Shown: positions 15,701-40,378 of the stretch, in pieces
Layout of the letters: every line of letters starts with the position of its first letter
Numbering within the stretch: position 1 is the stretch's first letter
IMG/VR virus record: IMGVR_UViG_3300032167_000278
DNA: 43,015 bases
Source of the DNA: a virus
Strand: one strand, 5' to 3'
Notes under the pieces: generated by a model
What the model was told of the DNA's origin: nothing
Seen by the model: the letters and a program-made list of their open reading frames with translations, nothing else
The model's database searches: none
Translations under genes and position numbers: made by a program

Positions 15701-16690
15701 TTACCCCAAAGTCTTTGCGTCTGGATTGTCCGAAAGGAAAATCAACCGATGTAAACCGGGGTCATATTTCAAACCGGAAATTTCAAAAACACGCCCACAG
15801 TCTTGTATGCAAAGCGTTGTATCTGGTGCAACCTTTTTTAACTTCTGTTCAAGACTTAAAAGAAAACTTTCTTTGTCCGCTGTTGCGTAATTCAGCCAAA
15901 TAAACAGTTCGCAATTTTTAGGCTTACTACTCACGTGAGTAGTCGGCTTTGTCTCTTTTTCAGATTCGTAAAAATCAGATTCAGACATTGAAGACGGTTC
16001 AATCATTTCGTCAAAATCCGGCACTTCAATTTCTGAATTGTCTTGTTTTTCACCTTTGTATTCATGCAGAATTTTTGTGGCGGCTGCATTCGTTCCGCCA
16101 GCTTCGTTCAGTTCCTGCACTTTACCCGGCAAATCTTCTGCATCCACGCTTCTAAGCTGTGCGAGCGCACGAGTTTTTAGCGAGCTTGTATCAATGCCAG
16201 CCACTTCAGCCTTTTCGCGCACTTTCGTTCCTGCCACAATGTCAGAAACATAGCTGATTGGCTTTGAAAGAAGGTCTGCTATTTCCTTCTGGGAAAGCCC
16301 TTTTTCAAGCATTTCGCGGATTGCGTTTTCTTTGTCCTGGGCGGTCAAATCAGTGCGCTGGATATTCTCAATCATTTGCAGCGTCCATGTCTCGCCTGTT
16401 CGGATACAGCATTCCACAAGTCCCACATCCACGCCCTGTTTCTGCAAAAAAGCAAGCGCACGCAATCGGCGATGACCACAAATCAACTCATAAACATTCT
16501 TACCCAAGCCCGGTTCAATAACGCCGGGTTTTACCGTAAGAGGATTAAGAAGCCCGTTTGTCTGAATGCTTTTTGCAAGGTTTTCGATTTCCTGCCAGTC
16601 GTAAACCTTGCGGACATTGCCGCTTTCTTCACGGATTTGTTCAAGAGGAATCTTTATTGTTGAAAGATTGTTGTTTGAAAACTTTGCCAT
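15701..16690 (-). CDS. parB: ParB-family partition protein
   Basis: ParB/Srx box LICGHRRLRA, HTH region GLSQKEIADLL. Immediately downstream of parA. Confidence 0.85.
   Translation of the reverse strand: MAKFSNNNLSTIKIPLEQIREESGNVRKVYDWQEIENLAKSIQTNGLLNPLTVKPGVIEPGLGKNVYELICGHRRLRALAFLQKQGVDVGLVECCIRTGETWTLQMIENIQRTDLTAQDKENAIREMLEKGLSQKEIADLLSKPISYVSDIVAGTKVREKAEVAGIDTSSLKTRALAQLRSVDAEDLPGKVQELNEAGGTNAAATKILHEYKGEKQDNSEIEVPDFDEMIEPSSMSESDFYESEKETKPTTHVSSKPKNCELFIWLNYATADKESFLLSLEQKLKKVAPDTTLCIQDCGRVFEISGLKYDPGLHRLIFLSDNPDAKTLG
15926..15943. repeat. CACGTG palindrome copy 1 (ACTACTCACGTGAGTAGT), inside the parB coding region
   Basis: Perfect 18-bp palindrome, translated in frame as TTHVSS in ParB. 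Confidence 0.85.
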
Positions 16691-16691
16691 T

Positions 16692-17408
16692 TTATGCCCA
16701 CTCCTTGCCTGTTACGGTCTGAATAAAATTCATCATGCGGCTTTCTACGGTTGCGGGAATCTTATATTCCGGGTTTTGAACGAGCTTCTGGAAGCTGTTC
16801 ACAAGCGGAATGGGATTTTCAATCATAAAGTCGCCGAAAGTGTTTTTGTATTGTTCCCAAATGTTGCCAGGGTCGCGGTTTTTGTTATAAGCATTGCAGA
16901 CGACAAAAACTTCTGATTCAAGGCAGCAATCCTGCAATGTGTCCATGTATTGCAAAGTTGCCTTGTAATCCAGCGGCGAACATTTGCCGCTTACAATGAT
17001 TGTGTCAGAAGCAAAGACTGCGTTGCGTGTCTGGGCGTTCCAAGTTCCCGGCGGGTCGATGATGATGTAGTCGTATTTTTCTGCAAGGCCCTGTTTTTTG
17101 ATTTCCAGCTTTAGCTTTGTGTCCATTACGTTTGAAAGCATGGATAAATCCAGGTCTTCCGGGATAATTGAAAGACTTCCGCCGCTTTCATGCTCTTTGA
17201 GCAAATACGGCTGGACTTCGCGGCCTGTAAGAAGAAGTTTTGAATTCTGGTCTTGCAAAACTTTTCCGTAGACTTCTGAAATGCTGCAATTCGGATCAAG
17301 GCCGATTATCAGCACTTTTTGAGCGTGCCTGTAAAGAAATTCTGCAAGCAGTGTGTTTAAGGTGGTTTTTCCTGTGCCGCCTTTTTTGTTGGTTGTCGTT
17401 AAAATCAT
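16692..17408 (-). CDS. parA: ParA-family partition ATPase
   Basis: Deviant Walker A NKKGGTGKTT near the N-terminus. 238 aa. Confidence 0.85.
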   Translation of the reverse strand: MILTTTNKKGGTGKTTLNTLLAEFLYRHAQKVLIIGLDPNCSISEVYGKVLQDQNSKLLLTGREVQPYLLKEHESGGSLSIIPEDLDLSMLSNVMDTKLKLEIKKQGLAEKYDYIIIDPPGTWNAQTRNAVFASDTIIVSGKCSPLDYKATLQYMDTLQDCCLESEVFVVCNAYNKNRDPGNIWEQYKNTFGDFMIENPIPLVNSFQKLVQNPEYKIPATVESRMMNFIQTVTGKEWA

Positions 17409-17452
17409 GTTTCTACTCCTTATGTATGATTTTCCGCTTTGGTTGCATTTAG

Positions 17453-17926
17453 TTAGAACGGTATGCGTTCGCCGTTTTCGTCATACATGTCCGGCGGCAC
17501 ATCGTCAAAATCCGGGGCTTCCGGTGCAGGGCTTGAATAGCCTTGTGAAGCAGGTTGTGTTCCGTTTGTGGCAACATTTACACGTTTGCCTTCGCCCGGT
17601 CTTCTTAAAGCTCTTACCCTGGTGGCACGGATTTCAACGCGTGAAAACTTTTTGCCGTCTTTTTCCCATGAAGAAGTTTTTAATTCAGCTTCAATGAGAA
17701 CTTCACGACCTTTGGTATATTCAGAAAGATTCTTTTTTGCGCTCTCACCCCAATAGCTAACGTCAAAAAAATTGGTTATTTTTTTCCACTCATTTGTTGA
17801 ATTGTCTAAATAATCTTTGTTTACTGCCAAAGAAAGCGTTGCAACAGCACTGCCATTGCTCAACGTGTTCAAGGATGCGTCTTTTGTAAGCCGCCCCTGC
17901 AAGTAAAGCGCGTTTAAATCACTCAT
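17453..17926 (-). CDS. ssb: Single-stranded DNA-binding protein
   Basis: OB-fold-type N-terminus, Gly/Pro-rich linker and an acidic tail ending ...DENGERIPF. Confidence 0.8.
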   Translation of the reverse strand: MSDLNALYLQGRLTKDASLNTLSNGSAVATLSLAVNKDYLDNSTNEWKKITNFFDVSYWGESAKKNLSEYTKGREVLIEAELKTSSWEKDGKKFSRVEIRATRVRALRRPGEGKRVNVATNGTQPASQGYSSPAPEAPDFDDVPPDMYDENGERIPF

Positions 17927-18227
17927 TGCCTTTTTCTCCTTCTGGTTTCTGCAATTTATATTCCGGGTGTTCTTTAACCCAAGATTCCAAAACTACCGTG
18001 TGGCCGCTGTAAGTTACCGGGCCGTCATGGTTCATAACTTTTGTATAAAACTGGTAATAGCTGAATTCAAAATCTATTGCAGCCTGGAAAAGTGAAAAGA
18101 AATAGGTTCCATCAACATAAACCGGACGACAATACCGATTACGGTGCGGTTTTGGATTCAACACTTTTTTATACAAGCCCCCCCCCCTAAGCGTCACCTT
18201 CCGAAAATTCAATTCCGGTAAAAACAA
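17919..18227 (-). CDS. Hypothetical protein (start uncertain; contains or follows a G10 tract)
   Basis: 102-aa ORF overlapping the antirepressor 3' end by 41 nt. An in-frame TTG at 18176 directly after the G-run is an alternative start. Confidence 0.4.
   Translation of the reverse strand: MFLPELNFRKVTLRGGGLYKKVLNPKPHRNRYCRPVYVDGTYFFSLFQAAIDFEFSYYQFYTKVMNHDGPVTYSGHTVVLESWVKEHPEYKLQKPEGEKGNE
18178..18187. repeat. C10 (G10 on the coding strand) homopolymer at the antirepressor stop
   Basis: Counted directly (ccc + ccccccc). The minus strand reads TAG-GGGGGGGGG-CTT. Confidence 0.8.
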
Positions 18228-19002
18228 GAATCAATTCGCCGTTTACCCGCTTTTGTTTGTAATCAACGAATTTTCCCATTATTTTTTGAACACGGCGGAC
18301 AAATGTATTTCTTGAAAGACAGTTGCCTGCACACCATGCTTCGTAACGCTCATATAATTCAGAAACAGGAACAAAACCAAAATCTACAACTTTGCAGATT
18401 TCAAAAATAAAGTTTTTGATTCTCATGTCTTCATCAGAAAAAGCGGCGGCGGAATTTTCCCCGGCAGCATTCCCAACAATTCCCTGTATTGCAGAGCGGG
18501 TCAAAAGTTTCTTTTCGCCCAATTCTTCCAGATGTTCAAGTATGTATCTGTTGGCACGGAGCTGTGCGATTTCGAGCTTTTTCTTTTCCTGTTCTAATTC
18601 TGTATCAAGTGTGATTGTGTAAGTTCCAGTTTTGCGGATTTGTGGAAGGACTTCATTTGTTACCCAACGGCGGAATTCTTTTGCAGCTTCTTTTCTGCTC
18701 ATAAAGATTGCGTGATACAATCCCGGTTCATTGATAACAAGCATTTCTTGATTTCCGCCAGAGGTGGAAATAGTGCAGTTTATTATTTCGTCTGAATCTA
18801 AAGAGCGTGTTAAGTCGGTTGCATTTTTATAGCCAAGAGCGATTGAGACATCTTTTGCGACAAAAAATGGAGCGTTTTCAATCTGAATTGTACGAACAAG
18901 TTCATCACCAAAAGCCCACGACTGTACTTTTTGTGCTGAAAGGGTATGCACAATTTGCATATCCTTTGCGTCAGTTTTTATTCCTTCACTCAATGATTCC
19001 AT
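18187..19002 (-). CDS. Antirepressor (Bro-N domain, KilAC-like C-terminus)
   Basis: FGDELVRTIQIENAPFFVAKDVSIALGY..ATDLTRSLD is Bro-N-like. Start moved to ATG 19002 (MESLSEG), preceded by RBS agggg. The region upstream of it is a terminator hairpin. Confidence 0.7.
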   Translation of the reverse strand: MESLSEGIKTDAKDMQIVHTLSAQKVQSWAFGDELVRTIQIENAPFFVAKDVSIALGYKNATDLTRSLDSDEIINCTISTSGGNQEMLVINEPGLYHAIFMSRKEAAKEFRRWVTNEVLPQIRKTGTYTITLDTELEQEKKKLEIAQLRANRYILEHLEELGEKKLLTRSAIQGIVGNAAGENSAAAFSDEDMRIKNFIFEICKVVDFGFVPVSELYERYEAWCAGNCLSRNTFVRRVQKIMGKFVDYKQKRVNGELILVFTGIEFSEGDA

Positions 19003-19015
19003 CAGATTTACCCCT

Positions 19016-19059
19016 AAAAACAAAAAAGCCCGGCGAGATGTCGTCTTTCCCACCGGGCT
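19016..19059 (-). terminator. Intrinsic terminator in the antirepressor leader
   Basis: The minus strand reads AGCCCGG-(19 nt)-CCGGGCT followed by TTTTTGTTTTT, ending 14 nt before the antirepressor ATG. Confidence 0.65.
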
Positions 19060-19163
19060 TAAAGCGGAAAACACAGGAGTATTTCACCCATGCTTTAACC
19101 ACCCAATAAAAAGTGAGTGGCTAATAAAGACGACATGAATTAGCAACTCATTTTCTACCTCTG

Positions 19164-19192
19164 AAAATAAGGGATAAATTTAATAATGTCAA
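19164..19192 (-). promoter_or_regulatory. Sigma-70-type promoter for the leftward early operon
   Basis: Minus strand: TTGACA (19192-19187), 17-nt spacer, TATTTT (19169-19164). Confidence 0.55.
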
Positions 19193-19305
19193 CACCTTAT
19201 TTTTGATTTTCAGTGTTTTTTTTCAAAAAAAATGCCGATACACTCAATTTTTACATGTTTCTAACCGAGAATCGCAATGCGGAAAACATTTTTTAGGGGT
19301 TGCCT

Positions 19306-20565
19306 ATGTCTCAAGAATACCTTGCATTGCAGGAACGCAAGCGGAAATGGATTCCACTTGCATGTATCGGCAGATGCTCTATTGCACAAGCTGCATTAAA
19401 TATTGGAATTACAGAAAGGGGTGTTTCATATCTAAAACACCGATACCGTTTATACGGCGATTCGATTTTCACAAATGGTCACAAAGGAAAAACTCAGAAG
19501 AAGCGGTACAGTGACGATTTGCGGAAAGAAATATGCAGAATATACCGCAACTATTGGCCAGACTCTAATTTCAGCGCATTCAAAGATCGCTTGATAACCT
19601 ATCACAACATCAAAATTGGAATAATTACACTTACAGAAATTCTACAATCAGACGGTATAAAATCACCAAAAGCACATTCAAAAGGCAAGAAAAAGAAACA
19701 TTTACCACGAAAAGAACGCCCCTGTACTGGTGAATTGCTGCAATTAGACGCTTCCAACCACGACTGGCTTATGAACGGCGAAAAAATAACGCTTCACGGG
19801 GCTGTTGATGACGCTACGCATGAACCGACAGGACTTTATTTCTGCCGGAATGAATGTAGACTGGGTTACAGTGAAGTTTTAAGACAAACTCTTACATTAC
19901 AAGGAAAACCAGAAGCTGTTTACATCGACAGACATGCGGCTTTTGTGAAAAACGCACGGAAAAAAGATAAAACACTGGAAGAGCGGCTTGAATACAGCAA
20001 GGAAGAAGAGACACATTGGACGGAAATCTGCAATGAACTGAATACGAAAATTATTTTAGCCCTGTCCGCAGAAGCAAAAGGCAGGATTGAACGATTTTGG
20101 GAAACTCTACAAGGTCGTTTGCCGCAGTTATTCAGATTTTTAGGCATAGATACGATTGAAAAAGCAAACGAATTCATGCCGACCTACATAAAAATGTACA
20201 AAGAACGCTTTGCCGTTCCCCCGCAGGACGAAAAAACACACTACAAACCCGCAAACATGACAGAGAACGAGCTTGAATATTTACTTTCCGTGAAGTTCCA
20301 GAAGAAAACACGATGGAACGGAGAGTTTATTTTTCACGGATTTTTATTTCATCTTGAAGCCCCTAGGGCCGCTTGTCGCGATTTCACACTTTGCCTTTCT
20401 GAAAAAACAGGAATCTGGGCGTTTATGGACGGCAAATATTACCCCGTTACCCTGGCAGAACCGCTTACAGACTGTGTTGGCGACCCGATGCCGCAGGTTG
20501 AAAAAGATTTGATTGAACGGTATTTGCTGAAATCCACACGGGTACAGCGTTACGCTTTTGGGTAA
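19306..20565 (+). mobile_element. DDE (rve-type) transposase gene; IS element boundaries not resolved
   Basis: N-terminal HTH, LQLDAS...AVDDATHE...AVYIDRHAAF...KGRIERFWETLQ (D, D, E pattern). ATG 19306 preferred over the track's TTG 19300 because the RBS tagggg lies 7 nt upstream. Confidence 0.7.
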
Positions 20566-20923
20566 AGGTAATTTTTTCATCTAACGGCAACATTGCGGCG
20601 CGTAGGCTGTTGATTTCGGTAAAAAAATAATTTTACCGAAAAAAGAAAATTAAAAAATCAAACTTCTCAATCTTTTTTCATTTTTTTTTACCTTCAATAC
20701 TTTACAAATAACTTTACTTTTTAAGTGTTTACAATACAACGATTTACTAATTTTTTTATGGTAAAATGGTAAAGTAATTTATATTACTTTGTAAAAGTTT
20801 TTTAAGAATAAAAATTTTAATGAATAAAAAATTTTATTCCAGAAAAAACTTTAGAAACTCTTACCAAAATTCTTTTACTACTTTACCAACAAAATATTTA
20901 ATTGTTTTACCAATAGTTACCAA
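20561..20923. repeat. AT-rich non-coding region carrying 11 TTACC/GGTAA core motifs, including 4 direct TTACCAA repeats
   Basis: GGTAA at 20561, 20567, 20618, 20760, 20768. TTACC at 20632, 20688, 20871, 20883, 20907, 20917. An 11-bp-stem hairpin at 20614-20641 is built from the motif. Confidence 0.7.
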
Positions 20924-21051
20924 TCCGCAATAAAAAGAAAAGCAGCTCAAAGGTACTGGGCAGCCCCCGTACCCGTATGCAATTATTCGGCGGCGGGTGC
21001 GTTTTGTTTTTTGTGCGTCATGTTCCGTGGTAGGTTTACAAAAAGTTTACA

Positions 21052-21067
21052 TTGGTATAGCGAGTTA
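21052..21067 (+). promoter_or_regulatory. Late-promoter-like motif copy 2 (TTGGTATAGCGAGTTA)
   Basis: 27 nt upstream of the ATG at 21095. Confidence 0.5.
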
Positions 21068-21094
21068 CATTGTCAACATTTACAATTTCCTGTA

Positions 21095-21859
21095 ATGGAA
21101 GTAAAAGCAGCAGAATTTGCGCGGATGGCTGGCGTTTCGCGCATGGCAATAAGTGGAAAAATAAAAAACGGTACTCTCATTCTGAACAGCGGCGGAAAGC
21201 TGGACACAGATAATCCGTTAAATCGTGCCTATTTGGACAAACACAGAGAAAAACAAAAAGCGGCTCTGCAAGCAAAAGAATTGGAACGAACTTTTAACCA
21301 GGCGGCAGAAGAAATTGAAAAACAGCCTTCTGCAACAACCTTTCCTTTGCCGGAGCAGACTAACAAACAGCTGGAGCAAAACCAGACACAAAACAAAGCC
21401 GCCACCATGCTGAACATGACTATTGGTGAACTGATTAAACACTACGGCGATGTAAAGGGCATTGGCGACTACGCAAAAATTTTGCGAGATTTAACAGCCG
21501 CCGACGAGCGCGAACAAAAAACGCAAGAAAGACGAATGCTGCAAATACCAAAAGACTTTGTTGTAGCCCGGCTTTTCAGCTTTGTAGACCAACTTATGAA
21601 CAAGCTGCTGGATGTGCCGGAAGCTGTAAGTGACCAGGTTATAGCTCTTGCACTCTCCAGCGACGAAGGAACAAGGCGGCAGGAAGTTATAAATGTTTTA
21701 AGCGACAATTTAACACGCTGTTTTGCCGGATGCAAAGAACACATTATTTCTGAACTGAACGGCTTAAAAGGTAAATACGACAAAACAGAAGACGATTCTG
21801 CAACCGTGATTGCAGACTTGAACGACAAGCTGGATTTATTGCAAGGTGGCAAAGAATGA
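21095..21859 (+). CDS. terS: Putative terminase small subunit (Nu1-like N-terminal HTH)
   Basis: MEVKAAEFARMAGVSRMAISGKIKNG resembles the lambda Nu1 N-terminus. The track start 21011 is a TTG upstream of the promoter-like motif, so ATG 21095 is preferred. Confidence 0.5.
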   Translation: MEVKAAEFARMAGVSRMAISGKIKNGTLILNSGGKLDTDNPLNRAYLDKHREKQKAALQAKELERTFNQAAEEIEKQPSATTFPLPEQTNKQLEQNQTQNKAATMLNMTIGELIKHYGDVKGIGDYAKILRDLTAADEREQKTQERRMLQIPKDFVVARLFSFVDQLMNKLLDVPEAVSDQVIALALSSDEGTRRQEVINVLSDNLTRCFAGCKEHIISELNGLKGKYDKTEDDSATVIADLNDKLDLLQGGKE

Positions 21860-22131
21860 AGTATTACACGAATCTATGGGAAAAGTTTCGGCTGGGCGAA
21901 AAAGCCAAAGATTACAGAACGGTTTTCAGAGGGAATGATTTTGCATTAGGCTGTGCAAAAACCGGACAAGAATGCGCAGAAAGATTCGGAGCGGGCGGAA
22001 CAATGCACGCAAACAAGGACGGTATGGAAATGGTCATAGAACAATGCGGAAAAATAGTCCTTTATATTGGCCCGGCGCAAAACCAAAATGACGGGCTGGG
22101 GAAATATTGCGGACTGATTTTAAAGGAATAA
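21856..22131 (+). CDS. Hypothetical protein
   Basis: 91-aa ORF, ATGA-coupled to the preceding gene. Confidence 0.5.
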   Translation: MKYYTNLWEKFRLGEKAKDYRTVFRGNDFALGCAKTGQECAERFGAGGTMHANKDGMEMVIEQCGKIVLYIGPAQNQNDGLGKYCGLILKE

Positions 22132-22145
22132 AGGGAGAAAATAAC

Positions 22146-22292
22146 ATGAGCCAAAACCAGAACAAGAAAATGTACAGACGAAACAGGCGGGAAACAATCC
22201 GGCATTACAGGGGATTTTGCAATTACATCAATACACAGAAATTCATTGCACGGCTGCATTTTGCGTGGCACGTGATAAAGGGGGATTTATGA
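22146..22292 (+). CDS. Small basic hypothetical protein (48 aa)
   Basis: Internal ATG of ORF 22107-22292, preceded by aagggagaaaataac. Its stop overlaps the next start (ATGA). Confidence 0.45.
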   Translation: MSQNQNKKMYRRNRRETIRHYRGFCNYINTQKFIARLHFAWHVIKGDL

Positions 22293-22525
22293 TTATTGAC
22301 CAGAGAAACACAAACGCCGTTATACAGGCCTTATGCAACAGAGGGTTGCAAGGAAAATCTCAAAAGATTTTTTTGAACGCTTCCCTGCCGGAAGTAGACA
22401 CGGATGATATTCAGCGAAAGATTGCGGAACTGCAAGAGGATTTGACGGCATTTGCGCGTGACATTGCCTGCATTGAACAGGATTACAAAGACAAGGCGGT
22501 AGAGAATGAACAAAAAAATTGTTAG
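22289..22525 (+). CDS. Hypothetical coiled-coil protein
   Basis: ATG 22289 with RBS aaaggggg. The longer track ORF from 22217 overlaps the previous gene. Confidence 0.45.
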   Translation: MIIDQRNTNAVIQALCNRGLQGKSQKIFLNASLPEVDTDDIQRKIAELQEDLTAFARDIACIEQDYKDKAVENEQKNC

Positions 22526-22817
22526 GGCTGATTTGGCAGAAGATTTGTACAACTCATACAACGGCAAGTTTGGGCGTGAAGAAGCTGCGCGGATTATTAA
22601 CCACATCATTTTGAAAATGAAAAGCGAGATTGCAGACGGCAACACAATAGAGCTGCGAGGATTCGGTACGCTTTACGCAAAAAAAAGAAACGGCAGAAAG
22701 AATGCACGAAATCCTAAGACGGGCGAAATAAAAAACATTCCGCCGCATTATGTGGCAGCATTCAAGGCCGGGCAAGAGCTTAAACAATCGCTGCTCATTC
22801 TGGATGCACTGGACTGA
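22506..22817 (+). CDS. HU/IHF-family DNA-bending protein
   Basis: IELRGFGTLYAKKRNGRKNARNPKTGEIKNIPPHYVAAFKAGQELK is the classic HU/IHF arm. Confidence 0.8.
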   Translation: MNKKIVRADLAEDLYNSYNGKFGREEAARIINHIILKMKSEIADGNTIELRGFGTLYAKKRNGRKNARNPKTGEIKNIPPHYVAAFKAGQELKQSLLILDALD

Positions 22818-22846
22818 TAATTACTAACGCGTGAAAACAGAAAGAG

Positions 22847-24832
22847 ATGCCACAGGTTAAAATCAATTTTGACGATGTAGATTTTTTAATTGAACAGTTC
22901 TCACGATTAACGGCACAGCGAAGCTACAGGAAGCCGAGCGAATACATTGAAAGTGTGCGTTACATTGACCGTGCGCTTTCACCTTTTCCGGGCAAATTCA
23001 GCTATGACAAGTTTCCGTATTTTAGGGAAATTGTAGACCAGTTTGCGCCGGATTGCCCGACAAGACGTGTTTATGTTATGAAGGGAAACCAGGTTGGAGC
23101 TACAACAGGACTGCTTGAAAGCATAATGATGTATTACATTGGCGAAAATCCTGCGCCGCAACTTTATGTTTTGCCGGACGAAATGATGGCCCGTGATGCC
23201 GTAAACACTAAAATTGACCCGACAATAGACAACTGCGGATTAAGAAACCTTATTTTCAGCCAGACAAGAAAAGCGGCGGGCGCAAAAAATACAGGCGATA
23301 CAGGATTAAAAAAGGAATATCCGGGCGGATATTTACACGCCGTTGGAGCCGGAAGCGGAAACCGCTTCAGAAACTTTTCTTACAAAATTGAGCTTGTGGA
23401 CGAAGCGGACGGAATGCAAGCCAAAGTTAAAGGCGAAGGTTCGATTTATGATTTGGCGGTTGCCCGTCTGGATGCCTACCCTACGAGCAGCAAACTTTTT
23501 ATTGGTTCAACACCAACAGAAGAAAGAAGCAGCTTGATTGCAAAACTTTTTAGAAACGGAACAATGAAGTATTTTTATGTTCCATGCAAGTTTTGCGGCG
23601 AAATGCAGAAACTTGAATGGGCAGTATGGAACGAAGATAAAACAGAGCAGATAGGCGGCATCGTCTGGGAAAACAACGAAAACTTTGAGCCGATTTTAGA
23701 GACAGTCGGCTATAAATGCCCGTATTGCGGCGGCATTATGAAAAACTACGACAAGGCAGCCATTGTTCCTAAAGGTGAATGGCGGGCAAGTCAAAAGCCG
23801 ATTCAGCCAAATACGGAAAGTTATCACATAACAGCTTTGTACAATCCGCCGGGAATGTTTTCCTGGGAAGACTATGTAAGCCAGTGGGCGGGATGCTGGG
23901 ATATTAAGGCAAACAAGGTGCGAGACAAAGAACGCTACAGAGTTTTCCGCAACCTTAAACAAGGGCTTACATTCCAGGAACAAAACGAGCAAATCAAATA
24001 CGAAAAGGCTGTCTTGCACAGGCGTTTTGGTTTTGCGCGCGGCACGATTCCAAACAAGATGGCGCGAGAAGAAGCCGGAAGCCCGATTCTTATTCTTGTT
24101 TGCGCAGTCGATGTTCAGAAAAACGGTTTGTATGTTGACATAAAAGGCTTTGCCATGAACGGCGTTACATACACGATTGACTTTAAGTTTATAGAGGAAG
24201 CGACGGAGCAATTCGGCGGCCCGTGGGATGAGCTTGAACAGATTATTGAAAACGGCATTTTTACCGACGAAGACGGCTTAAACTACCGCATTGCAATAAC
24301 GCTTGTTGATTCCGGCCATTATACGGATTGGGTTTATTCCTTTGTGGCGCGATTTACGGCGGGCGTTTACGCTTCAAAAGGTATGGACTGGATCAAGGGC
24401 GGCGAGACTTACCAGCTTTTCAGCCGCGCAACACTTGACCGAATAGGTTTGCCGCTTGCGTATCATGTGAATACAGGAAAACTTAAAGACCGAATTTCAA
24501 ACAGTATGAATGTTTTAAGGTGGAACGAAGGTGAAAAACAGCCAGCATGGTTCCCGAACTTCCCGGAAAACTTTAGGGATGATTACTTCAAAATGTTTGA
24601 AGCGGAAGAGAAAGTTGAAGTTATAGACAAGAATACGGGCCAATGGCTGAAGACAATCTGGCGGGCTAAATTTGGAGCTGCAAACCACGGCTTTGATACA
24701 TACGTTTATGCTTTGGCGGCTTTGGAGATTCTGGCGGATGATATTTGCAGAAACGAAATCGGGCTAAAGGCTTTGGACATGGGCGTTTTCTGGAGATATG
24801 CAAAACAGAATCTTATTCCGGGGGAAAAATAA
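22847..24832 (+). CDS. terL: Terminase large subunit (lambda gpA family)
   Basis: 661 aa. N-terminal ATPase region (VMKGNQVGATTGLLE), zinc-like CKFCG...CPYCG pair, size and position typical of gpA. Confidence 0.8.
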   Translation: MPQVKINFDDVDFLIEQFSRLTAQRSYRKPSEYIESVRYIDRALSPFPGKFSYDKFPYFREIVDQFAPDCPTRRVYVMKGNQVGATTGLLESIMMYYIGENPAPQLYVLPDEMMARDAVNTKIDPTIDNCGLRNLIFSQTRKAAGAKNTGDTGLKKEYPGGYLHAVGAGSGNRFRNFSYKIELVDEADGMQAKVKGEGSIYDLAVARLDAYPTSSKLFIGSTPTEERSSLIAKLFRNGTMKYFYVPCKFCGEMQKLEWAVWNEDKTEQIGGIVWENNENFEPILETVGYKCPYCGGIMKNYDKAAIVPKGEWRASQKPIQPNTESYHITALYNPPGMFSWEDYVSQWAGCWDIKANKVRDKERYRVFRNLKQGLTFQEQNEQIKYEKAVLHRRFGFARGTIPNKMAREEAGSPILILVCAVDVQKNGLYVDIKGFAMNGVTYTIDFKFIEEATEQFGGPWDELEQIIENGIFTDEDGLNYRIAITLVDSGHYTDWVYSFVARFTAGVYASKGMDWIKGGETYQLFSRATLDRIGLPLAYHVNTGKLKDRISNSMNVLRWNEGEKQPAWFPNFPENFRDDYFKMFEAEEKVEVIDKNTGQWLKTIWRAKFGAANHGFDTYVYALAALEILADDICRNEIGLKALDMGVFWRYAKQNLIPGEK

Positions 24833-24836
24833 AAAA

Positions 24837-25592
24837 ATGAGAAGACAGATTGCTTATAACATGGACTGCATGGACTTAATGAAACTGTTGCCAGACAATG
24901 AATTTGACTTGGCGATTGTAGATCTGCCCTATGGGGGGGGGTACACGCCGCTTGTGGTGGACGGTTTGACCGATACGAACCGAAAAAGCAAAAGGCAGAA
25001 GCCACACCGTACAGGGGGCATCTTTAGCAACGCTGAAGAAATCAAAGTTGGACGCACGGGCGGAACATGGGCTGCAAAATACGGAAGCAAAGTTGCGCAA
25101 TGGGATATTGCGCCGGATGACGAATATTTTAAAGAGCTTTTCAGAGTAAGCAAACGACAAATAATCTGGGGCGGAAATTATTTTAACCTGGGTGCAAGCC
25201 GTTGTTATTTGGTATGGAGAAAAAGCAATATTCCGGCAGAAGGTTTTTCGCTTGCGCCTGTTGAACTTGCATGGACGAGTTTAAACGAAAATGCAGCCTA
25301 TTTTGAATGCGGTTCAAATGGAGCTGAAGACGGAACAAGAATTCACCCTACACAAAAACCGATTGCGTTATATACATGGATTTTGCACAGGTTCGCAAAA
25401 CCTGGCGACAAGATTTTAGATACACACTTAGGCAGCGGTTCAAGCAGGATTGCAGCGCACGAAATGGGCTACGATTTTGTAGGATGCGAAAAGGACACTG
25501 AATATTTCCTTTTGCAGGAAAAGCGTTTTAAAAGCTGGATTGCACAGCAAAGCCTTTTTGAAATGGACGGCGGGCAGCCAGTGTTATTCTAA
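24837..25592 (+). CDS. Beta-class amino (N6-A or N4-C) DNA methyltransferase with an internal G9 tract
   Basis: Motif IV DLPYG near the N-terminus and motif I DTHLGSGSS near the C-terminus (beta order). ATG 24837 follows the terminase stop. G9 at 24933-24941. Confidence 0.75.
   Translation: MRRQIAYNMDCMDLMKLLPDNEFDLAIVDLPYGGGYTPLVVDGLTDTNRKSKRQKPHRTGGIFSNAEEIKVGRTGGTWAAKYGSKVAQWDIAPDDEYFKELFRVSKRQIIWGGNYFNLGASRCYLVWRKSNIPAEGFSLAPVELAWTSLNENAAYFECGSNGAEDGTRIHPTQKPIALYTWILHRFAKPGDKILDTHLGSGSSRIAAHEMGYDFVGCEKDTEYFLLQEKRFKSWIAQQSLFEMDGGQPVLF
24933..24941 (+). repeat. G9 homopolymer encoding GGG directly after the DLPY catalytic motif
   Basis: Counted directly: tat ggg ggg ggg tac. Confidence 0.85.
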
Positions 25593-25601
25593 GAAAAAAG
25601 C

Positions 25602-25627
25602 GGCAACTACTCACGTGAGTAGTTGCC
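25602..25627. repeat. CACGTG palindrome copy 2 (26-bp perfect: GGCAACTACTCACGTGAGTAGTTGCC)
   Basis: Lies between the convergent methyltransferase and hicB genes. Confidence 0.85.
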
Positions 25628-25639
25628 ATTCTTAATGCT

Positions 25640-26032: not shown

Positions 26033-26071
26033 AAATCTATACTCCTTGCGGGCTTACGCCCGCATTTGCTT

Positions 26072-26248: not shown

Positions 26249-26254
26249 ACTTAT

Positions 26255-26283
26255 AATATAATACGCATTATGCGTATTGTCAA
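26255..26283 (-). promoter_or_regulatory. Consensus sigma-70 promoter of hicAB with a palindromic operator in the spacer
   Basis: Minus strand: TTGACA, then a 17-nt spacer (ATACGCA-TAA-TGCGTAT), then TATATT. The ATG lies only 6 nt after the -10. Confidence 0.65.
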
Positions 26284-30062: not shown

Positions 30063-31715
30063 ATGATTGAAAAGACACTTGATAATTACAACCTGTATTT
30101 AATGGATTTAGCGCAGGATGCCTGGAACGGTTCAAAGTTTGAAGGAAGTTTCGGGCCAATTACTGATTTTGTTTTTGTTGATTACTGGACGCTGCGCAAG
30201 CGTTCTTTGCGTTTATTCAAAGAAAACCTGTACGCAAAAGGTATTATCCGCCGTTTACTTTGGAATGAGATTCACACGGGGCTTGTTGCGGCCCCTATGC
30301 CTGTTGGTTCTGTCATCTGGTCAAAAAAGAGCGAAGACGAACAGGAAGAAAAAGCCACTGATTACGCAGAAAAATTTTCCACAGAGTTTGATTTATACGC
30401 TTCTACCCCGGCAGTTTTTGACTGGGGCAAAAAACAGAATTTTGGAGCGTTCCAGGAACAAGTTCGCTTTGAAAGCCTGGTATGCGGCGACGGTATCATT
30501 ATTTCACGCATTGACAATAAAACAGGTTTACCGCGCTGGCAGTGGGTAAACGGCGACAACATAAGAACGCCGGATAATTACACACCAAAAGGCGGCAACT
30601 GGATTAAACACGGCGTAGAGTTTGACAAATACGGAAAAAAGGTTGCTTTTCATATTCGTACTGAAATTAACGGCGATGTTCATTTTGAGCGTGTACCGAC
30701 AAGGGGCGAAAAATCGGGGCGGCTTATAAGCTGGATGGTTTACGGAAGCGAAACACTGCTTGACGATACCAGGGGCGAACCGTTTTTGGCTGATACGCTT
30801 TATATGCTTAAAGAACTTGACCGCTACCGCGACGCCGAAACACGCGCCGCGGTCATTAACGCTATGCTTGCCTTCTTTGTGGAGCGTTCGCAGGAAAGCG
30901 CAAAAGGCGCAAGACCTAGCGACGGCCTGGCACGGTTACGCCCTACGGTTGGAACTACACCTGCTGAACCAAAAGATTACAACCCATTTCCAGATAAAAA
31001 AATTGGCGATGATTTGCGGGAAATGAAGCCGGGAACCTTCTTTGATGATTTGGATCCGGGCCAGAAGATTGTAAGCCCTGCAACAAACCGCCCTAATGTG
31101 AATTACCGCACTTTTGAAGAAGCTATTATTTCCGGGCTTGCATGGACGCACGGAATTCCGCCGGAAATCTTGATGCTGAAATTTGGCAACAACTATTCAG
31201 CTTCAAGACAGGCAAACAATGAATTTGAAGTTTACCTTAGCCGTCAGATTAAAAAGAACGCAGATACTTTTTGCCAAAATATCTACAACGCTTTTATTAC
31301 ACAGGCAATTTTACAAGGTCAGCTTGACGCGCCGGGATTTTTGCAGGCTTACGGCGATGTTGCAAAATGGCGGGTTATTTCTGCTTGGCTTCAATGCACA
31401 TGGCTTGGACTTAGCCGCCCTAGCGTTGACCGCGAAAAAGAAATCAGAGCCAGCCAACTTGCCGTTGATAACGGATTTTCTACTTTTGACAAAGAAGCAT
31501 TACGCAATAGCGGCATGACGTTAAAACAGGTTTTGCAACAACAGAAAAAAGAGCGGGCTTTGATGAAGCGCACGGGCTTTATTCCGCACGTGGACGAAAA
31601 CAACAACGGAGAGCCAGTTTATACGGACATTGACGCGGAACCAATTAACGATGAAAGCGAGCTGAACGGAAGTTCAAGCCCTTCTTCTGAAGGCGGCACA
31701 GGGGGCAAAGAATGA
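30063..31715 (+). CDS. Portal protein (lambda gpB family)
   Basis: 550 aa, position gpW-portal, acidic C-terminus. Confidence 0.75.
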   Translation: MIEKTLDNYNLYLMDLAQDAWNGSKFEGSFGPITDFVFVDYWTLRKRSLRLFKENLYAKGIIRRLLWNEIHTGLVAAPMPVGSVIWSKKSEDEQEEKATDYAEKFSTEFDLYASTPAVFDWGKKQNFGAFQEQVRFESLVCGDGIIISRIDNKTGLPRWQWVNGDNIRTPDNYTPKGGNWIKHGVEFDKYGKKVAFHIRTEINGDVHFERVPTRGEKSGRLISWMVYGSETLLDDTRGEPFLADTLYMLKELDRYRDAETRAAVINAMLAFFVERSQESAKGARPSDGLARLRPTVGTTPAEPKDYNPFPDKKIGDDLREMKPGTFFDDLDPGQKIVSPATNRPNVNYRTFEEAIISGLAWTHGIPPEILMLKFGNNYSASRQANNEFEVYLSRQIKKNADTFCQNIYNAFITQAILQGQLDAPGFLQAYGDVAKWRVISAWLQCTWLGLSRPSVDREKEIRASQLAVDNGFSTFDKEALRNSGMTLKQVLQQQKKERALMKRTGFIPHVDENNNGEPVYTDIDAEPINDESELNGSSSPSSEGGTGGKE

Positions 31716-32143
31716 ACGGCATGGAAGATTTGATTGTAAAAGAGCCGGAAGACAAGGCACTTGAACAGATGGAAAAACAGCAGCTTGTAAGTGTGATTAT
31801 TGACCAGCAAAAAGAGCTTAACAGGATGCGCGGACTTCTGGAGCTGGAAAAGAAAAACAGTGAGCGATACAGAAACGGTTATTACACGCTTGCACATTTT
31901 GACTGGATGATTACGAATGAGCGGCTTAAAAAAGAATGGCGGGATGCGAAAGTTACGCCGCCGAATGACAGTTCTATGAAGTGGGTTTGTTCCGAAGGCG
32001 GCGTTGAAGTTCCGGCTTTTTATGACGGTGAAAACTGGTGGACTGAAAAGCATGAAAAAGTTAATGCGATGGTGTGGCAGCATTTGCCGCATTACGTGAA
32101 GAAAATTTTAGACAAAGAGGTTAAGCAATGTGGGAAGCAATAA
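31712..32143 (+). CDS. Hypothetical protein (possible DUF551-like C-terminus)
   Basis: 143-aa ORF overlapping the portal stop by 4 nt. Confidence 0.45.
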   Translation: MNGMEDLIVKEPEDKALEQMEKQQLVSVIIDQQKELNRMRGLLELEKKNSERYRNGYYTLAHFDWMITNERLKKEWRDAKVTPPNDSSMKWVCSEGGVEVPAFYDGENWWTEKHEKVNAMVWQHLPHYVKKILDKEVKQCGKQ

Positions 32144-32613
32144 GCACAGTTTTGACAAGTAAAAATACATGGATGGTACTTGTGTTTTTAGCCGTGCTTA
32201 TTGCGTTGATTGCTTTTCTTGCAAAAGTCGGACTGATAACAATTCACACTAAAGCTGTAAAGATTGGTGAGGATCAAAAAGAGCGGGAAATTATAAGGCA
32301 ACAAGTGGAATGGGCGCATTTGTTCATTATGAGCTTGCGGTCAAAAATCATAACAGACGAAAGCGAGTACAACGGATATTTTACAAAATATATTCTTGAA
32401 CGGTGTTATGACAAGGTTGTGGAATGGATAACCTTTAACCATTTGAACACAAAAACCGCCTACATCGAAATTAAACAGGAAGAAATCTGTTCCCTGGTTT
32501 ACGGGCTGGGCGTGAAAGAAGAATTCAAGACGGCGGAATTTAAACACAGGATGCAAAACTGGACGCAGGAACTTATAGAACATCTTGTAAAAATACGCGA
32601 GGTGTACAAGTGA
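32128..32613 (+). CDS. Membrane-anchored hypothetical protein
   Basis: N-terminal TM segment WMVLVFLAVLIALIAFLAKVGLI. RBS aaagagg. Confidence 0.5.
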   Translation: MWEAISTVLTSKNTWMVLVFLAVLIALIAFLAKVGLITIHTKAVKIGEDQKEREIIRQQVEWAHLFIMSLRSKIITDESEYNGYFTKYILERCYDKVVEWITFNHLNTKTAYIEIKQEEICSLVYGLGVKEEFKTAEFKHRMQNWTQELIEHLVKIREVYK

Positions 32614-32618
32614 ATCTC

Positions 32619-32638
32619 AACTACTCACGTGAGTAGTT
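32619..32638. repeat. CACGTG palindrome copy 5 (AACTACTCACGTGAGTAGTT)
   Basis: Intergenic, with no convincing T-run after it (taaatctttt). Confidence 0.85.
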
Positions 32639-32665
32639 TAAATCTTTTAAAAGCGAGGTGCAAAA

Positions 32666-32965
32666 ATGAGCGAAGAAAAAGAAAGCGGAACTGGCGAAAA
32701 AGAGAAAGCAAGTAAATTTCAAAGCAGGAAATTTCTTGTCTGGATTGTCTGGGGTGTGATTACTTTTGTTGTTGCTGTCGTTGTTATTATTTGCTGCATA
32801 AAAAACATTTTGGAAGCAAAGACTGCGATTGAGCTTTTAACAGCTGCAATACAGGATTTTTTCTACATTTCACTTTTGTATCTTGGTGTAAATGCCGGAC
32901 AAAAAATCGGTTTTGCAGTGAGTGATGCCATTGCAAGCAAATCTTCAAATAACGAAGAAAGATGA
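32666..32965 (+). CDS. Holin candidate (two TM segments)
   Basis: 99 aa. TM1 FLVWIVWGVITFVVAVVVIICCI, TM2 FFYISLLYLGVNAGQKIGFAV. First gene of the lysis cluster. Confidence 0.5.
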   Translation: MSEEKESGTGEKEKASKFQSRKFLVWIVWGVITFVVAVVVIICCIKNILEAKTAIELLTAAIQDFFYISLLYLGVNAGQKIGFAVSDAIASKSSNNEER

Positions 32966-33078
32966 TTGGGCTGATTTTAGGAATTATTCTTTGTATTTTT
33001 TTTGGCTTCTTTGCGATTGGCGCAATGGTGCTAAATTACGAAGAACACGAAAGAAGAAGGAAAAAGAAAAATGATTAA
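32962..33078 (+). CDS. Small single-TM protein (38 aa, below the ORF-track cutoff)
   Basis: Hand-translated MIGLILGIILCIFFGFFAIGAMVLNYEEHERRRKKKND. ATGA-coupled upstream and overlaps the next start. Confidence 0.4.
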   Translation: MIGLILGIILCIFFGFFAIGAMVLNYEEHERRRKKKND

Positions 33079-33352
33079 GTTTTTTTTGATTTTAACGGCG
33101 GTGCTTTTCGTTGGGATTTTGTTACTTTTCTTTTTGTGGCGGATTGAAAAGACAAAGCGAAAAGAAACACAGGGCAAACTTGAAAGCACAAACAAGGAAC
33201 TTGCAAGGGCTATTGCTGAACAGGCAAAACTTGAAAGTACGATTCGGATTTTAAGAAAAAACAGGAAGGAAGCGGATGAAAAAATCAATAATTTGCATGA
33301 CGGCGATACTCTTGGCAACGCTCTTAACGGGCTGCACAAGCACAAAAATTGA
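33071..33352 (+). CDS. i-spanin candidate (Rz-like: N-terminal TM + coiled coil)
   Basis: FFLILTAVLFVGILLLFFL followed by a charged helical region. Confidence 0.55.
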   Translation: MIKFFLILTAVLFVGILLLFFLWRIEKTKRKETQGKLESTNKELARAIAEQAKLESTIRILRKNRKEADEKINNLHDGDTLGNALNGLHKHKN

Positions 33353-33563
33353 GTACATCGAAAAACCTTATTTGCCGGAATTAAACTTCCCTTCTTTTCC
33401 TGGATTGTACGGCGATGTAAGAAACCCGGACGATACAGTTACCGTGCCGGGCGAATGGATTATACAGCTTAGGGAATTTCAGATCCGTTATGAAGAAACA
33501 GAAAACGATTACAACGATTTGAAAGCGTTGTATGAAGGCAATTCTGAAGAAAAAGCAAAATAA
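33276..33563 (+). CDS. o-spanin candidate (Rz1-like lipoprotein), overlapping the i-spanin 3' end in another frame
   Basis: Signal peptide with lipobox MKKSIICMTAILLATLLTGC. RBS aggaagga. Confidence 0.6.
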   Translation: MKKSIICMTAILLATLLTGCTSTKIEYIEKPYLPELNFPSFPGLYGDVRNPDDTVTVPGEWIIQLREFQIRYEETENDYNDLKALYEGNSEEKAK

Positions 33564-33576
33564 AGTGAGGTGAAAA

Positions 33577-33972
33577 ATGGCTATCAGTTTGACGCAGTTT
33601 ATTAAAAAGTATCTTGGAACAAAAGTTGATTTTGACGGAAAATTCGGGCCACAGTGCGTAGATCTTGCACGACAGTATTACAGCGAAGTTCTGGAAGTTC
33701 CGCAATTTCCGCCTGTTGAAGGTGCAAAAGACATTATTAAAAACCCTGGCAAGCTGAAAGTCATAAAAGAAGATGCGCTTGCGGATTATTCCAGCGGAGA
33801 CATTCTAGTCTGGGGCGCGAGCAAAACAAACAAATACGGCCATGTTGCAATTCTTGTTTCAATCTACAACACAAAATATTTTATTGTTCTGGAACAAGAT
33901 GGATTCAAACAGGATGGCTGCAAGCTGGCATTCAGAAGCCGTGAAAATCTTTTGGGCGGTTTGTACAAGTAA
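33577..33972 (+). CDS. CHAP-domain endolysin
   Basis: FGPQCVDLARQYY (catalytic Cys) and YGHVAILV (His). Confidence 0.7.
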   Translation: MAISLTQFIKKYLGTKVDFDGKFGPQCVDLARQYYSEVLEVPQFPPVEGAKDIIKNPGKLKVIKEDALADYSSGDILVWGASKTNKYGHVAILVSIYNTKYFIVLEQDGFKQDGCKLAFRSRENLLGGLYK

Positions 33973-34028
33973 ATTGCGGGCGTTGCCTGTAAATAATAAA
34001 AAATGCCCTAAATGGGCAGGGGGTAAAA

Positions 34029-38477: not shown

Positions 38478-39959
38478 ATGGGTGTAAGTCCTAGCACGGT
38501 TTCAAGAATTACAGGTCTTGAAACGCATTACAAAAACTTTAACACCGGGAATGCCGCAATGCTGCCACAACAGCTTGCGATTGTTGGACAGGGAAACGAC
38601 GATGCCGTCTATTCTCTTGACAAGTACGAAATTGAAGGAAGCGCAGACGTTGTTGCACAGAAGTACGGCTACGGAAGCCCCCTTCACCTTGCGGCGTTAC
38701 AGCTTTTCCCAAAAGCCGGAGCAATGGCCACATTCCCTGTTTACATTTTGCCTGTTGCAAAAGGCGCGCAGTGGACTAAGGCACAGGGCGAAATCCTTAT
38801 TACTGGAGATGCTGCAACAAAAGCCGGAAGCGGTACTGTTAGCGTTGGCGGTGTAGACGCTGAATTCAGCGTTGCAAAAGGCGCAACAGCTTCTGAAACT
38901 ATGGCTGCCATTGTTGCTGCAATTAACGCCGTGCTTGAAATGCCAGCGGCTGCTGCTGTTACAGCAGCCGCTGGAGATGTGCCGGAGCATATCACTTTGA
39001 CCGCAAAATGGAGCGGCGTACTTGGAAACAGTATTACTATTGTTATGGATGCCGACTTGCCAGGCTTAACCGTGGCAATTACTGCATTTGCAGACGGAGC
39101 AGGAATACCAGACGTTACAGGTGCGCTTGAAAAAATCGGTCAGAAATGGGTTACATTCATTCTTTCAACTTTTGACTACAAGGCTGGAAGCGCACTTGAT
39201 ACATACCAGGTTTGGGGGGAAGGCCGCTGGAGCGTTTTGCAGAAAATGCCTTGTATTGTTGCGCACGGCTGTACAGACAACTACACAACACGCACTGCAA
39301 TCACGGACGAACGTAAAAACGACTATATCAACTTTTTGATTCCTAGTGTTGGTTCGCCGGAGTTGCCTTTTGTCGTTGCTGCAAAAGGTCTGCTTAATGA
39401 CATTATTACAACAGCGGATTCAAACCCGCCGCAGAACTACAAAGGGCAGCTTACAGGACTTAAAGCCGGAAGCGATGAAGCGCAGGAAACGCCACAGATT
39501 CGCAACCAGTCCATTCTTAAAGGCGCGTCAAACAACATTAAGAGCGGAAACGTTGCAGAACTGAACGACATTGTGACATTCTATCACCCGGATTCAGAAG
39601 GCAAATACCCTGGCCGACGCTACGTTGTGGATGCGGTTAAACTTATGAACATTGTTTATAACTGCCGCCTTATTACAGAAAGCGATGATGTTAAGGGCGC
39701 GCCACTTGTGCCGGATTCACAGGTTACGACAAACCCGAAGGCGATAAAGCCTAAGACTGTAAAAGGCTGGCTTGCAAACCTTGCGCATTCTCTAGCACTG
39801 AATGCGATTATCAGCGATGAAGATTTTACAAAAGAAAATCTTACAGTCGGAATCAACAGCGAAAATCCTAAACGCGTTGATTACGTGTTCCCGTGCAAAC
39901 TTTCCGGCAACGTGGAAGTTATCAGCGGCGATATTTATTTTGGCTTTTATTTAGGCTAA
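38478..39959 (+). CDS. Tail sheath protein
   Basis: 493 aa from ATG 38478 (RBS aaaaggag). Followed by a 125-aa tube, chaperone and tape measure, with a contractile-tail baseplate present. Confidence 0.65.
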   Translation: MGVSPSTVSRITGLETHYKNFNTGNAAMLPQQLAIVGQGNDDAVYSLDKYEIEGSADVVAQKYGYGSPLHLAALQLFPKAGAMATFPVYILPVAKGAQWTKAQGEILITGDAATKAGSGTVSVGGVDAEFSVAKGATASETMAAIVAAINAVLEMPAAAAVTAAAGDVPEHITLTAKWSGVLGNSITIVMDADLPGLTVAITAFADGAGIPDVTGALEKIGQKWVTFILSTFDYKAGSALDTYQVWGEGRWSVLQKMPCIVAHGCTDNYTTRTAITDERKNDYINFLIPSVGSPELPFVVAAKGLLNDIITTADSNPPQNYKGQLTGLKAGSDEAQETPQIRNQSILKGASNNIKSGNVAELNDIVTFYHPDSEGKYPGRRYVVDAVKLMNIVYNCRLITESDDVKGAPLVPDSQVTTNPKAIKPKTVKGWLANLAHSLALNAIISDEDFTKENLTVGINSENPKRVDYVFPCKLSGNVEVISGDIYFGFYLG

Positions 39960-39970
39960 GGAGTTGAAGG

Positions 39971-40348
39971 ATGGCAAAAGCAGGAAGTGCATTTGAAAGC
40001 ATAACTTTGAATGGAAGGAACTTCACTTGTGACAGCGAGAGTGAGCCGGAAGTCGACCTTACAACATATTCAAACGAAACCGCCGCAAATACAGACGGAA
40101 CTTTCCGCATCAAGAAAACGCGCAAAGTCCAGTCCATTAGCGGCGTAGAAATTGCCGTTGACCCCGGACTGGGGGATTTGAGTTTTATAAACGACTTGCA
40201 AAACAAACTTGAGCCTTTTTCTTTTATGGCTACAAGGGTGGATGGTGGCGTTTATTCTGGCGAAGTTACGCTTGTTGGTGATGTGAAGCACAAGGAAAAA
40301 GACGGAACAATGGAGCTTTCCATTGAGGGCAGAATTGAAATGCTGTAA
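39971..40348 (+). CDS. Tail tube protein
   Basis: 125 aa directly after the sheath. RBS aaggag. Confidence 0.6.
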   Translation: MAKAGSAFESITLNGRNFTCDSESEPEVDLTTYSNETAANTDGTFRIKKTRKVQSISGVEIAVDPGLGDLSFINDLQNKLEPFSFMATRVDGGVYSGEVTLVGDVKHKEKDGTMELSIEGRIEML

Positions 40349-40354
40349 CAAAAG

Positions 40355-40378
40355 CCGACTACTCACGTGAGTAGTCGG
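40355..40378 (+). terminator. CACGTG palindrome copy 6 (CCGACTACTCACGTGAGTAGTCGG) followed by agATTTTTATTTTT
   Basis: 24-bp perfect palindrome plus T-run, 7 nt after the tube stop. Confidence 0.7.

Follow-up and report, generated by a model that had tools for sequence, protein, structure and literature searches.

Dispersed palindromes at the gene boundaries of a Treponema phage as candidate non-canonical ParB sites that double as predicted terminators

The 43,015-nucleotide viral record IMGVR_UViG_3300032167_000278 (the window, meaning the whole stretch that was analysed) is the genome of a Treponema phage, across which are scattered six copies of an 18-bp palindrome, ACTACTCACGTGAGTAGT. With modest confidence, and on the grounds of sequence comparison, we lean towards reading these palindromes as non-canonical, dispersed ParB sites that double as terminator stems. 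They would be read by one phage-encoded dimeric DNA-binding protein, most probably the phage's own CTPase-type ParB, with a non-canonical recognition helix. The sites lie at operon and gene boundaries, and copy-specific G+C clamps and T-runs would make most of them into terminators.

The exact 18-mer occurs at positions 15926, 25606, 26316, 32620 and 40358, and a sixth copy, at 29679, has one mismatch (ATTACT...). With their palindromic extensions, the copies are as follows.

15926–15943, unstranded: copy 1, inside parB codons 250–255 (TTHVSS); 18 bp only, with no palindromic extension and no T-run
25602–25627, unstranded: copy 2, a perfect palindrome of 26 bp between the convergent N6/N4 methyltransferase gene (plus strand) and hicB (minus strand)
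26315–26334, unstranded: copy 3, 20 bp between the end of an XRE-like gene (26346–26564, minus strand) and the start of hicA (26308, minus strand)
29673–29702, plus strand: copy 4, a stem of 13 pairs with the core ATTACTCACGTGAGTAGT, then TTTTTCTTTTT
32619–32638, unstranded: copy 5, 20 bp between genes at 32128–32613 and 32666–32965, with a weak T-rich tail (plus strand)
40355–40378, unstranded: copy 6, a perfect palindrome of 24 bp between the tail tube gene (39971–40348) and the tail chaperone gene (40405–40836), then AGATTTTTATTTTT

The copy 4 palindrome itself (29674–29701) is 28 bp long with one mismatch, and is placed 3' of a ribbon-helix-helix (RHH) gene (29382–29594) and 5' of the head-joining and portal genes. 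Of 100 dinucleotide shuffles, none matched the 18-mer, and the central 8-mer TCACGTGA is confined to the six sites in the window (0.31 expected). A search of the window for degenerate copies returned none further, even at five mismatches, and the motif is in this sense all-or-nothing. Five of the six copies are intergenic, while intergenic DNA makes up 6.9% of the genome (binomial P ≈ 9 × 10^-6), and the copies span 25 kb, with no clustering beside the terminase genes. The six dispersed copies of the original prediction, five exact and one with a single mismatch, are thereby confirmed, as are the lengths that it gave for their palindromic extensions.

The exact 18-mer was recovered from 64 viral stretches and from 48 stretches out of 185,579 species genomes. 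When the viral and genome scans are taken together, 46 of the 47 low-GC stretches encode homologues of the window phage's genes, and each Treponema genome holds only a few copies of the 18-mer; instead of the abundant, host-wide repeat of the repetitive extragenic palindromic (REP) kind that the original prediction had named as counting against it, the low-GC loci are thus, with one exception, homologous phage DNA. The stretches that are not low in GC (~62% G+C) come from Streptomyces phages in the phiC31/phiBT1 group. Single exact 18-mers are also present in the chromosomes of Streptomyces and other actinobacteria with 66–73% G+C (L069, L075, L076, L082, L083, L095, L103 and L110; L numbers are our locus labels). 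These high-GC single copies may be chance matches (~9 expected in 596 Gb, by our own estimate) or remnants of phiC31-like prophages.

That the palindrome is a generic signal, whether a REP-like repeat of the host, a restriction or methylation target or a packaging (cos/pac) signal, is hardly credible given this distribution. CACGTG is a 6-bp palindrome of the type II restriction–modification kind, the phage encodes two DNA methyltransferases and, in relatives, a site often lies just upstream of the large terminase (TerL) gene. However, conservation extends over 18 bp, and CACGTG is replaced in relatives while the arms stay, which largely refutes the methylation or restriction target that had been raised as an alternative. 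The 25-kb spread of the sites also argues against packaging, for which the likely cos region is elsewhere: the interval at 20565–21011, upstream of the small terminase (TerS) gene, is AT-rich, repeat-rich and non-coding (TTTAC/TTTACC motifs) and may be a cos or an origin region, and the contigs of several relatives start just upstream of TerS.

Each of the five intergenic copies in the window is predicted to form a hairpin with a T-rich tail on at least one strand. Copy 2 is terminator-like on either strand, with TTTTTT on the minus strand and a weak tail on the plus strand, and copy 3 has a T8 run downstream on the minus strand. The original prediction had described three copies as terminator-like and copy 5 as lacking a T-run; the terminator likeness stands, but the count is five, and copy 5 does have a weak T-rich tail. 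Across the 73 distinct sites of the 18-mer, the 18-mer is nearly invariant, the flanks are unrelated and the clamp sequences differ between copies, and 36% of sites have at least three extra complementary flank pairs, against a chance expectation of 1.6%. A T-rich tail is present at 53% of these sites. Flanks that are unrelated yet complementary, around an invariant core, agree with the earlier argument for selection rather than simple duplication; at the orthologues of copy 5 in relatives, for example, the flanks drift and the 18-mer is kept. Most copies look like intrinsic terminators, as predicted from sequence, and the palindrome has repeatedly been extended into such a predicted terminator.

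Flank extensions are missing from about a third of the distinct sites, and T-rich tails from around half. Some sites are located inside open reading frames (ORFs), in the linkers of ParB and TerS, and others form tandem pairs immediately 5' of the early operon. Because the extension is absent at around a third of sites, and because of the sites within ORFs and the upstream pairs, termination cannot be the whole function of the palindrome. In L208, a relative with the identical 18-mer, sites occur in close pairs at 5577–5633 and 7982–8027; one pair lies in linker codons of the small terminase and the other directly upstream of the early operon that holds parAB. In L196, a site at 7376 marks the 5' end of the early operon.

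Relatives whose TerL is at least 78% identical to that of the window have the 18-mer unchanged. More distant lineages have several copies of a variant motif, which is uniform within each genome.

L147/L124/L128/L201: ACTACTTACGTAAGTAGT
L120: ACTACTTACGAAAGTAGT
L291: ACTACTAGCGCTAGTAGT
L292, L293 and the contig of L213: ACTACTTTT(G/A)AAAGTAGT
L125/L126: (G/A)TTCCTTACGTAAGGAA(A/T), also given as GTTCCTTACGTAAGGAAA
L129: ACTTCTTACGTAAGAAGT

The variant copies are found at shared junctions, namely the boundary between TerS and TerL, the 3' side of TerL, both sides of the portal gene, the 5' side of the protease gene and the 3' side of the tail tube gene; at the junction of tail tube and chaperone genes that is occupied by copy 6 in the window, L120 holds its own motif type. 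Most lineages keep the arms ACTACT/AGTAGT; variation is in the inner bases (CACGTG, TACGTA, AGCGCT and TTTGAA), with the symmetric centre changing between lineages from TCACGTGA to TTACGTAA to TAGCGCTA. Because all copies of a genome change together, and symmetrically, the variation points to a phage-encoded, trans-acting, sequence-specific reader of the palindrome. Where the centre is asymmetric, as in the variants ACTACTTTTGAAAGTAGT and ACTACTTACGAAAGTAGT, most copies share one orientation relative to the local coding strand (L292, L293, L294–L329 and L120).

We considered whether the shared hairpin could instead be an RNA-level element, that is, a terminator or processing module that is read by a phage RNA-binding factor such as an antiterminator, with no reader of double-stranded DNA. 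The hairpin and T-rich tail of all five intergenic copies in the window would fit this explanation, as would compensatory flank changes that keep complementarity and a variable centre that would be the loop. The orientation of TTTTGAAA would also fit, with 25 sites in the same and 8 in the opposite direction to the coding strand (2 versus 0 for the L120 type), as counted with a crude strand assignment over sites that are not independent. The sites without flank extension or T-rich tail are difficult to reconcile with it, however, as are the copies inside the parB and TerS-linker ORFs and the operator-like tandem pairs upstream of operons, and a loop would not require the centre to change symmetrically. 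Moreover, the repressor of phiC31 reportedly binds the sequence as double-stranded DNA (Wilson et al. 1995). We regard an RNA-level element as decidedly unlikely.

The candidate reader and its partner are encoded by adjacent genes.

15701–16690, minus strand: parB, Pfam PF02195, with Spo0J, Noc and ParB as best PDB relatives; the candidate reader
16692–17408, minus strand: parA, a 238-amino-acid Walker-type ATPase; shares an operon with parB, which it directly precedes; Pfam AAA_31, CbiA and MipZ

The protein encoded by parB comprises a ParB_N domain with GHRR and ENIQR motifs, a helix-turn-helix (HTH) at residues 134–163, a second DNA-facing helix at 173–181, a disordered linker and a small C-terminal domain. 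Its CTPase motifs read CGHRRLRA and IENIQR, and residues G72, R74, R75, E108, N109, Q111 and R112 are invariant in 24–28 family members. The earlier claim that the genome encodes ParA and a ParB with a GxRR box therefore holds, with the Pfam domains and the GHRR motif found in adjacent genes of one operon.

Several features tie this ParB to the palindromes. It is present in every palindrome-bearing lineage with a readable replication module. Where the recognition helix of ParB reads [YWF]V[SH]D...[AT]G, the palindromes have ACTACT arms; sister ParBs of the same phage family with EQWVSKHLAAH or KGFVSINISAY (L214–L222) go without palindromes. L208 and the window, with their identical 18-mer, have conserved DNA-facing helices in ParB. 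When aligned with canonical ParB, G201 of the Caulobacter protein corresponds to R174 of the window ParB; at this position (R201 in Noc), which reads an inner base, a role in specificity has been proven (PMC7383237). The residue is R in three lineages that have C at the variable inner position throughout, and K in lineages with T, A or a mixture there.

The original argument from a parS-like core is not supported. Where canonical ParB contacts parS through R173 and N178, the window ParB has I145 and D150. The conserved part of the motif is the arms and the core is variable (TACGTA, AGCGCT and TTTGAA in other lineages), and the likeness of the window core to canonical parS is therefore probably fortuitous.

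A copy of the motif recurs inside parB itself. Residues 218–260 of the window ParB have a predicted local distance difference test (pLDDT) score below 50 in an AlphaFold 2 (AF2) model, which places copy 1 in a predicted disordered linker. Besides the window, L147/L128/L201, L199, L196 and L210 have a copy of their own motif type in the equivalent linker, a tally of five or six lineages whose ParBs are 44–100% identical to that of the window. The motif encodes TTHVSS in the window, TTNVSN in the lineage with TACGTA and a variant in L199, L196 and L210, and the surroundings in the linker are otherwise unalignable at the protein level. In Bacillus subtilis, spo0J similarly contains a parS site inside the parB gene. 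The co-occurrence of the palindrome with a ParB clade, which the original prediction had proposed as a check, is thus seen in these copies and in the type of recognition helix.

The Streptomyces phage phiC31 provides the closest match to the motif itself. Its genome has 16 copies of CCTACTCACGTGAGTAGG, the inner 16 bp of which, CTACTCACGTGAGTAG, are identical to the window motif, and all of them are intergenic except one inside the repressor gene c, where it encodes PTHVSS. We take this palindrome to be the phiC31 conserved inverted repeat (CIR). Wilson et al. in 1995 reportedly described 17-bp conserved inverted repeats that the 42-kDa isoform of c binds as double-stranded DNA. As in the window family, the copies are scattered over gene boundaries, for example on either side of the large terminase gene and following capsid and tail genes. 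Several are part of a longer palindrome rich in G+C, and one is within the gene of the DNA-binding protein (PTHVSS in c and TTHVSS in parB). In contrast, the binder c belongs to Pfam PF25746 and phiC31 has no ParAB, its host is of another phylum and a generic primase-helicase ATPase domain is all that the two genomes have in common. No ParB-like ORF was found in phiC31 or the Streptomyces loci.

The c family and ParB are unrelated in sequence and, as modelled, in predicted fold. The AF2 model of a c homologue (P0138) has a pLDDT of 90 and is all-alpha, with no significant match in the PDB, so that the c family (PF25746; phiC31 gene L113 19274–21325) appears to be an undescribed DNA-binding fold. 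A shallow hhalign alignment of the first part of the 42-kDa c isoform with the DNA-binding helices of ParB (ISAVHGHVDNIK...TKHRNTLRS versus ISYVSDIVAGTK...TRALAQLRS) was rejected as a sign of homology, because it disappeared with deeper profiles (probability 0.3%).

The phiC31 sites give weight to the alternative, already mentioned in the original prediction, of an operator shared by a common regulator, given that the same 16 bp occur 16 times in a phage without ParB. The palindromes would then be operators or stoperators of a phage repressor other than ParB, an analogue of phiC31 c, and ParB would be a mere neighbour with one site. Many dispersed repressor sites, between 18 and 30, have been reported for phiC31 (PMC4557955). 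The sites at the 5' end of the early operon in L196 (7376) and L208 (the upstream pair) are where such a repressor might act, an integrative phage family needs an immunity repressor and the window encodes small HTH or RHH proteins at 26346–26564, 29382–29594 and 17919–18227. However, tblastn, phmmer and the family hidden Markov model all returned no match to the c family (PF25746) in the window, the XRE-like protein (26346–26564) was detected in only one other lineage and the recurrence of a copy in the parB linker would be left unexplained. We consider a repressor other than ParB rather unlikely.

The small protein at 17919–18227 was downgraded as a candidate reader, because its putative recognition helix differs between two lineages that share identical sites and because it is present in a lineage without sites. 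It is ~85 amino acids long, lies between Bro-N and SSB and has a ...PVYVDG..Y.SL.QAAI... pattern with no Pfam hit; its HTH is our own visual reading. Homologues occur at 10 of 10 loci of palindrome-bearing lineages (the L212 locus itself showed no palindrome copy) and at 1 of 9 loci without palindromes.

The lifestyle of the phage bears on what a ParB with dispersed sites might do. The window assembles as a circle of 42,888 bp whose ends overlap by 127 bp (1–127 and 42889–43015), and the tape-measure gene spans the circle junction (41309–43015 plus 1–613). The genome is that of a tailed phage with 42% G+C and encodes a GpA-type large terminase as well as portal, capsid, sheath and baseplate proteins. 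Its minus-strand early operon comprises Bro-N, the 85-amino-acid HTH protein, SSB, ParA, ParB, a 77-amino-acid protein and a primase-helicase. Relatives are viral contigs and metagenome-assembled genomes (MAGs) of Treponema and other spirochaetes, several of the MAGs being from ruminant gut compartments; megablast of window positions 14000–34000 against phage and plasmid collections returned no match.

Close relatives are integrated in Treponema chromosomes at differing sites, with host genes that directly abut the Bro-N gene. Their homology to the window stops at ~19187. In the window, a rve/DDE gene (19300–20565) occupies the position of the tyrosine integrase of sister lineages; the loci compared over window positions 19075–20565 are L283, L284, L291 and L293. 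The only contigs on which the exact rve protein was seen measure 20–50 kb or less, the four full-length ones shown being ~43 kb. This suggests that a DDE-transposase-like enzyme acts as the integrase of this phage and that the window is an excised circle. Because close relatives are chromosomally integrated, the family is not one of obligate plasmid prophages like N15.

This distinction, made with no search aimed at a protelomerase, weakens the analogy with N15 that the original prediction had drawn. In N15, separate palindromic sites (IR1–4, read by SopAB) are scattered through the genome of a temperate phage (PMC7205306), and both systems therefore combine a ParAB-type pair with scattered sites instead of one array. 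However, N15 encodes SopB, whereas the window ParB is nearest to chromosomal Spo0J, Noc and ParB, and N15 is an obligate linear plasmid prophage, whereas the relatives of the window are integrated at different chromosomal sites and carry integrase-type genes, including the tyrosine integrase of the sister lineages. The likeness to canonical ParB–parS (TGTTNCACGTGAAACA) comprises the ParB fold, the CTPase motifs, a palindrome of similar size and, in the window lineage, an identical central 8 bp. The arms differ, the contact residues R173 and N178 are replaced and the central 8 bp are not kept in sister lineages.

KorB of the plasmid RK2 offers a further parallel. KorB is a CTPase clamp that slides on DNA from dispersed palindromic sites and serves both partition and global transcriptional silencing (PMC11790492). 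The two systems share a ParB-family CTPase with a ParA partner and many dispersed palindromes on a mobile element. They differ in the core of the KorB operator OB (TTTAGCGGCTAAA), in the element (a phage here, a conjugative plasmid there) and in placement, as the window sites mainly mark terminators and gene ends, not the neighbourhood of promoters; KorB is also only a weak sequence relative of the window ParB (E = 0.006). In the stoperators of mycobacteriophage L5 and Streptomyces phage R4, many repressor sites scattered through the prophage block transcription elongation (PMC4557955, PMC10276819). Unlike the palindromic window sites, stoperators are asymmetric and bound by monomers, with a partial likeness in two lineages of the window family that have an asymmetric centre and an orientation bias.

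Because the family is not one of obligate plasmid prophages, we favour, by analogy, a role like that of KorB (partition together with genome-wide regulation) or of the phiC31 repressor sites over that of a pure centromere. If ParB reads the palindromes, ParB loaded at these sites could act with ParA in partition of the circular form. It could also serve as a genome-wide transcriptional insulator or silencer that autoregulates its own operon, much like KorB of RK2 or the repressor at its sites in phiC31. In a bolder version, which we hold tentatively and think somewhat unlikely, ParB would be the master silencer of the family, a CTP-dependent clamp that does the job of a CI-type repressor prophage-wide and that has converged on the phiC31 architecture, including the same 16-bp site and the copy in its own gene. 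The clamp would be loaded at the terminator palindromes and at the head of the early operon, insulating and repressing the prophage.

Several observations weigh against ParB as the reader. The copy inside parB is absent in L208, L213 and L291. The co-occurrence with ParB leaves out two lineages with differing arms (GTTCC... and ACTTC...), whose contigs begin just upstream of TerS or of the integrase gene. K at the position equivalent to G201 goes with three different cores, and the covariation between motif and ParB comes from few independent lineages. As relatives are integrated, a partition role is not obviously needed. The orientation bias of the asymmetric variant hints at a transcription-coupled or RNA-level role. 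Finally, the motif is not diagnostic of parS, because the same 16 bp occur in phiC31 without ParB and with an unrelated repressor.

If ParB does read these sites, the family would offer a natural series of closely related pairs of ParB and site, in which the arms stay the same around inner bases that read CAC, TAC, AGC or TTT. It would constitute a ready-made system for the evolution of ParB specificity, with R174/K at the Caulobacter G201 position and the [YWF]V[SH]D helix as candidate residues. The logic of a partition protein as a global regulator, as in KorB, would then reach integrative tailed phages of gut and rumen spirochaetes, with DNA-binding sites co-opted as terminator stems. The identity with phiC31, where the reported binder is unrelated, is either a striking convergence or the product of an unrecognised shared constraint. 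It also carries a practical warning, in that parS cannot be called from sequence resemblance alone.

Other parts of the genome include an accessory block that is flanked by copies 2–4.

24798–25592, plus strand: N6/N4 methyltransferase
25640–26308, minus strand: hicAB
26715–27560: ArdC-like anti-restriction/metallopeptidase gene
27986–29347: C5 cytosine methyltransferase

The window also contains a diversity-generating retroelement cassette at 7344–10318, for which the domain names were taken from homologous genes in L283. It comprises a target protein of the mtd_2nd/FGE-sulfatase (C-type-lectin-like) type (7344–8543), bAvd (8597–8965) and a reverse transcriptase (9314–10318).

A similar motif occurs on a viral contig of 67.5 kb, IMGVR_UViG_3300038701_001470 (L178, L181, L191 and L192), which has 52–55% G+C and almost no protein similarity to the window. 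Within the 17.7 kb of this contig that were seen, there are six exact copies of TTCCTTACGTAAGGAA and two near-copies.

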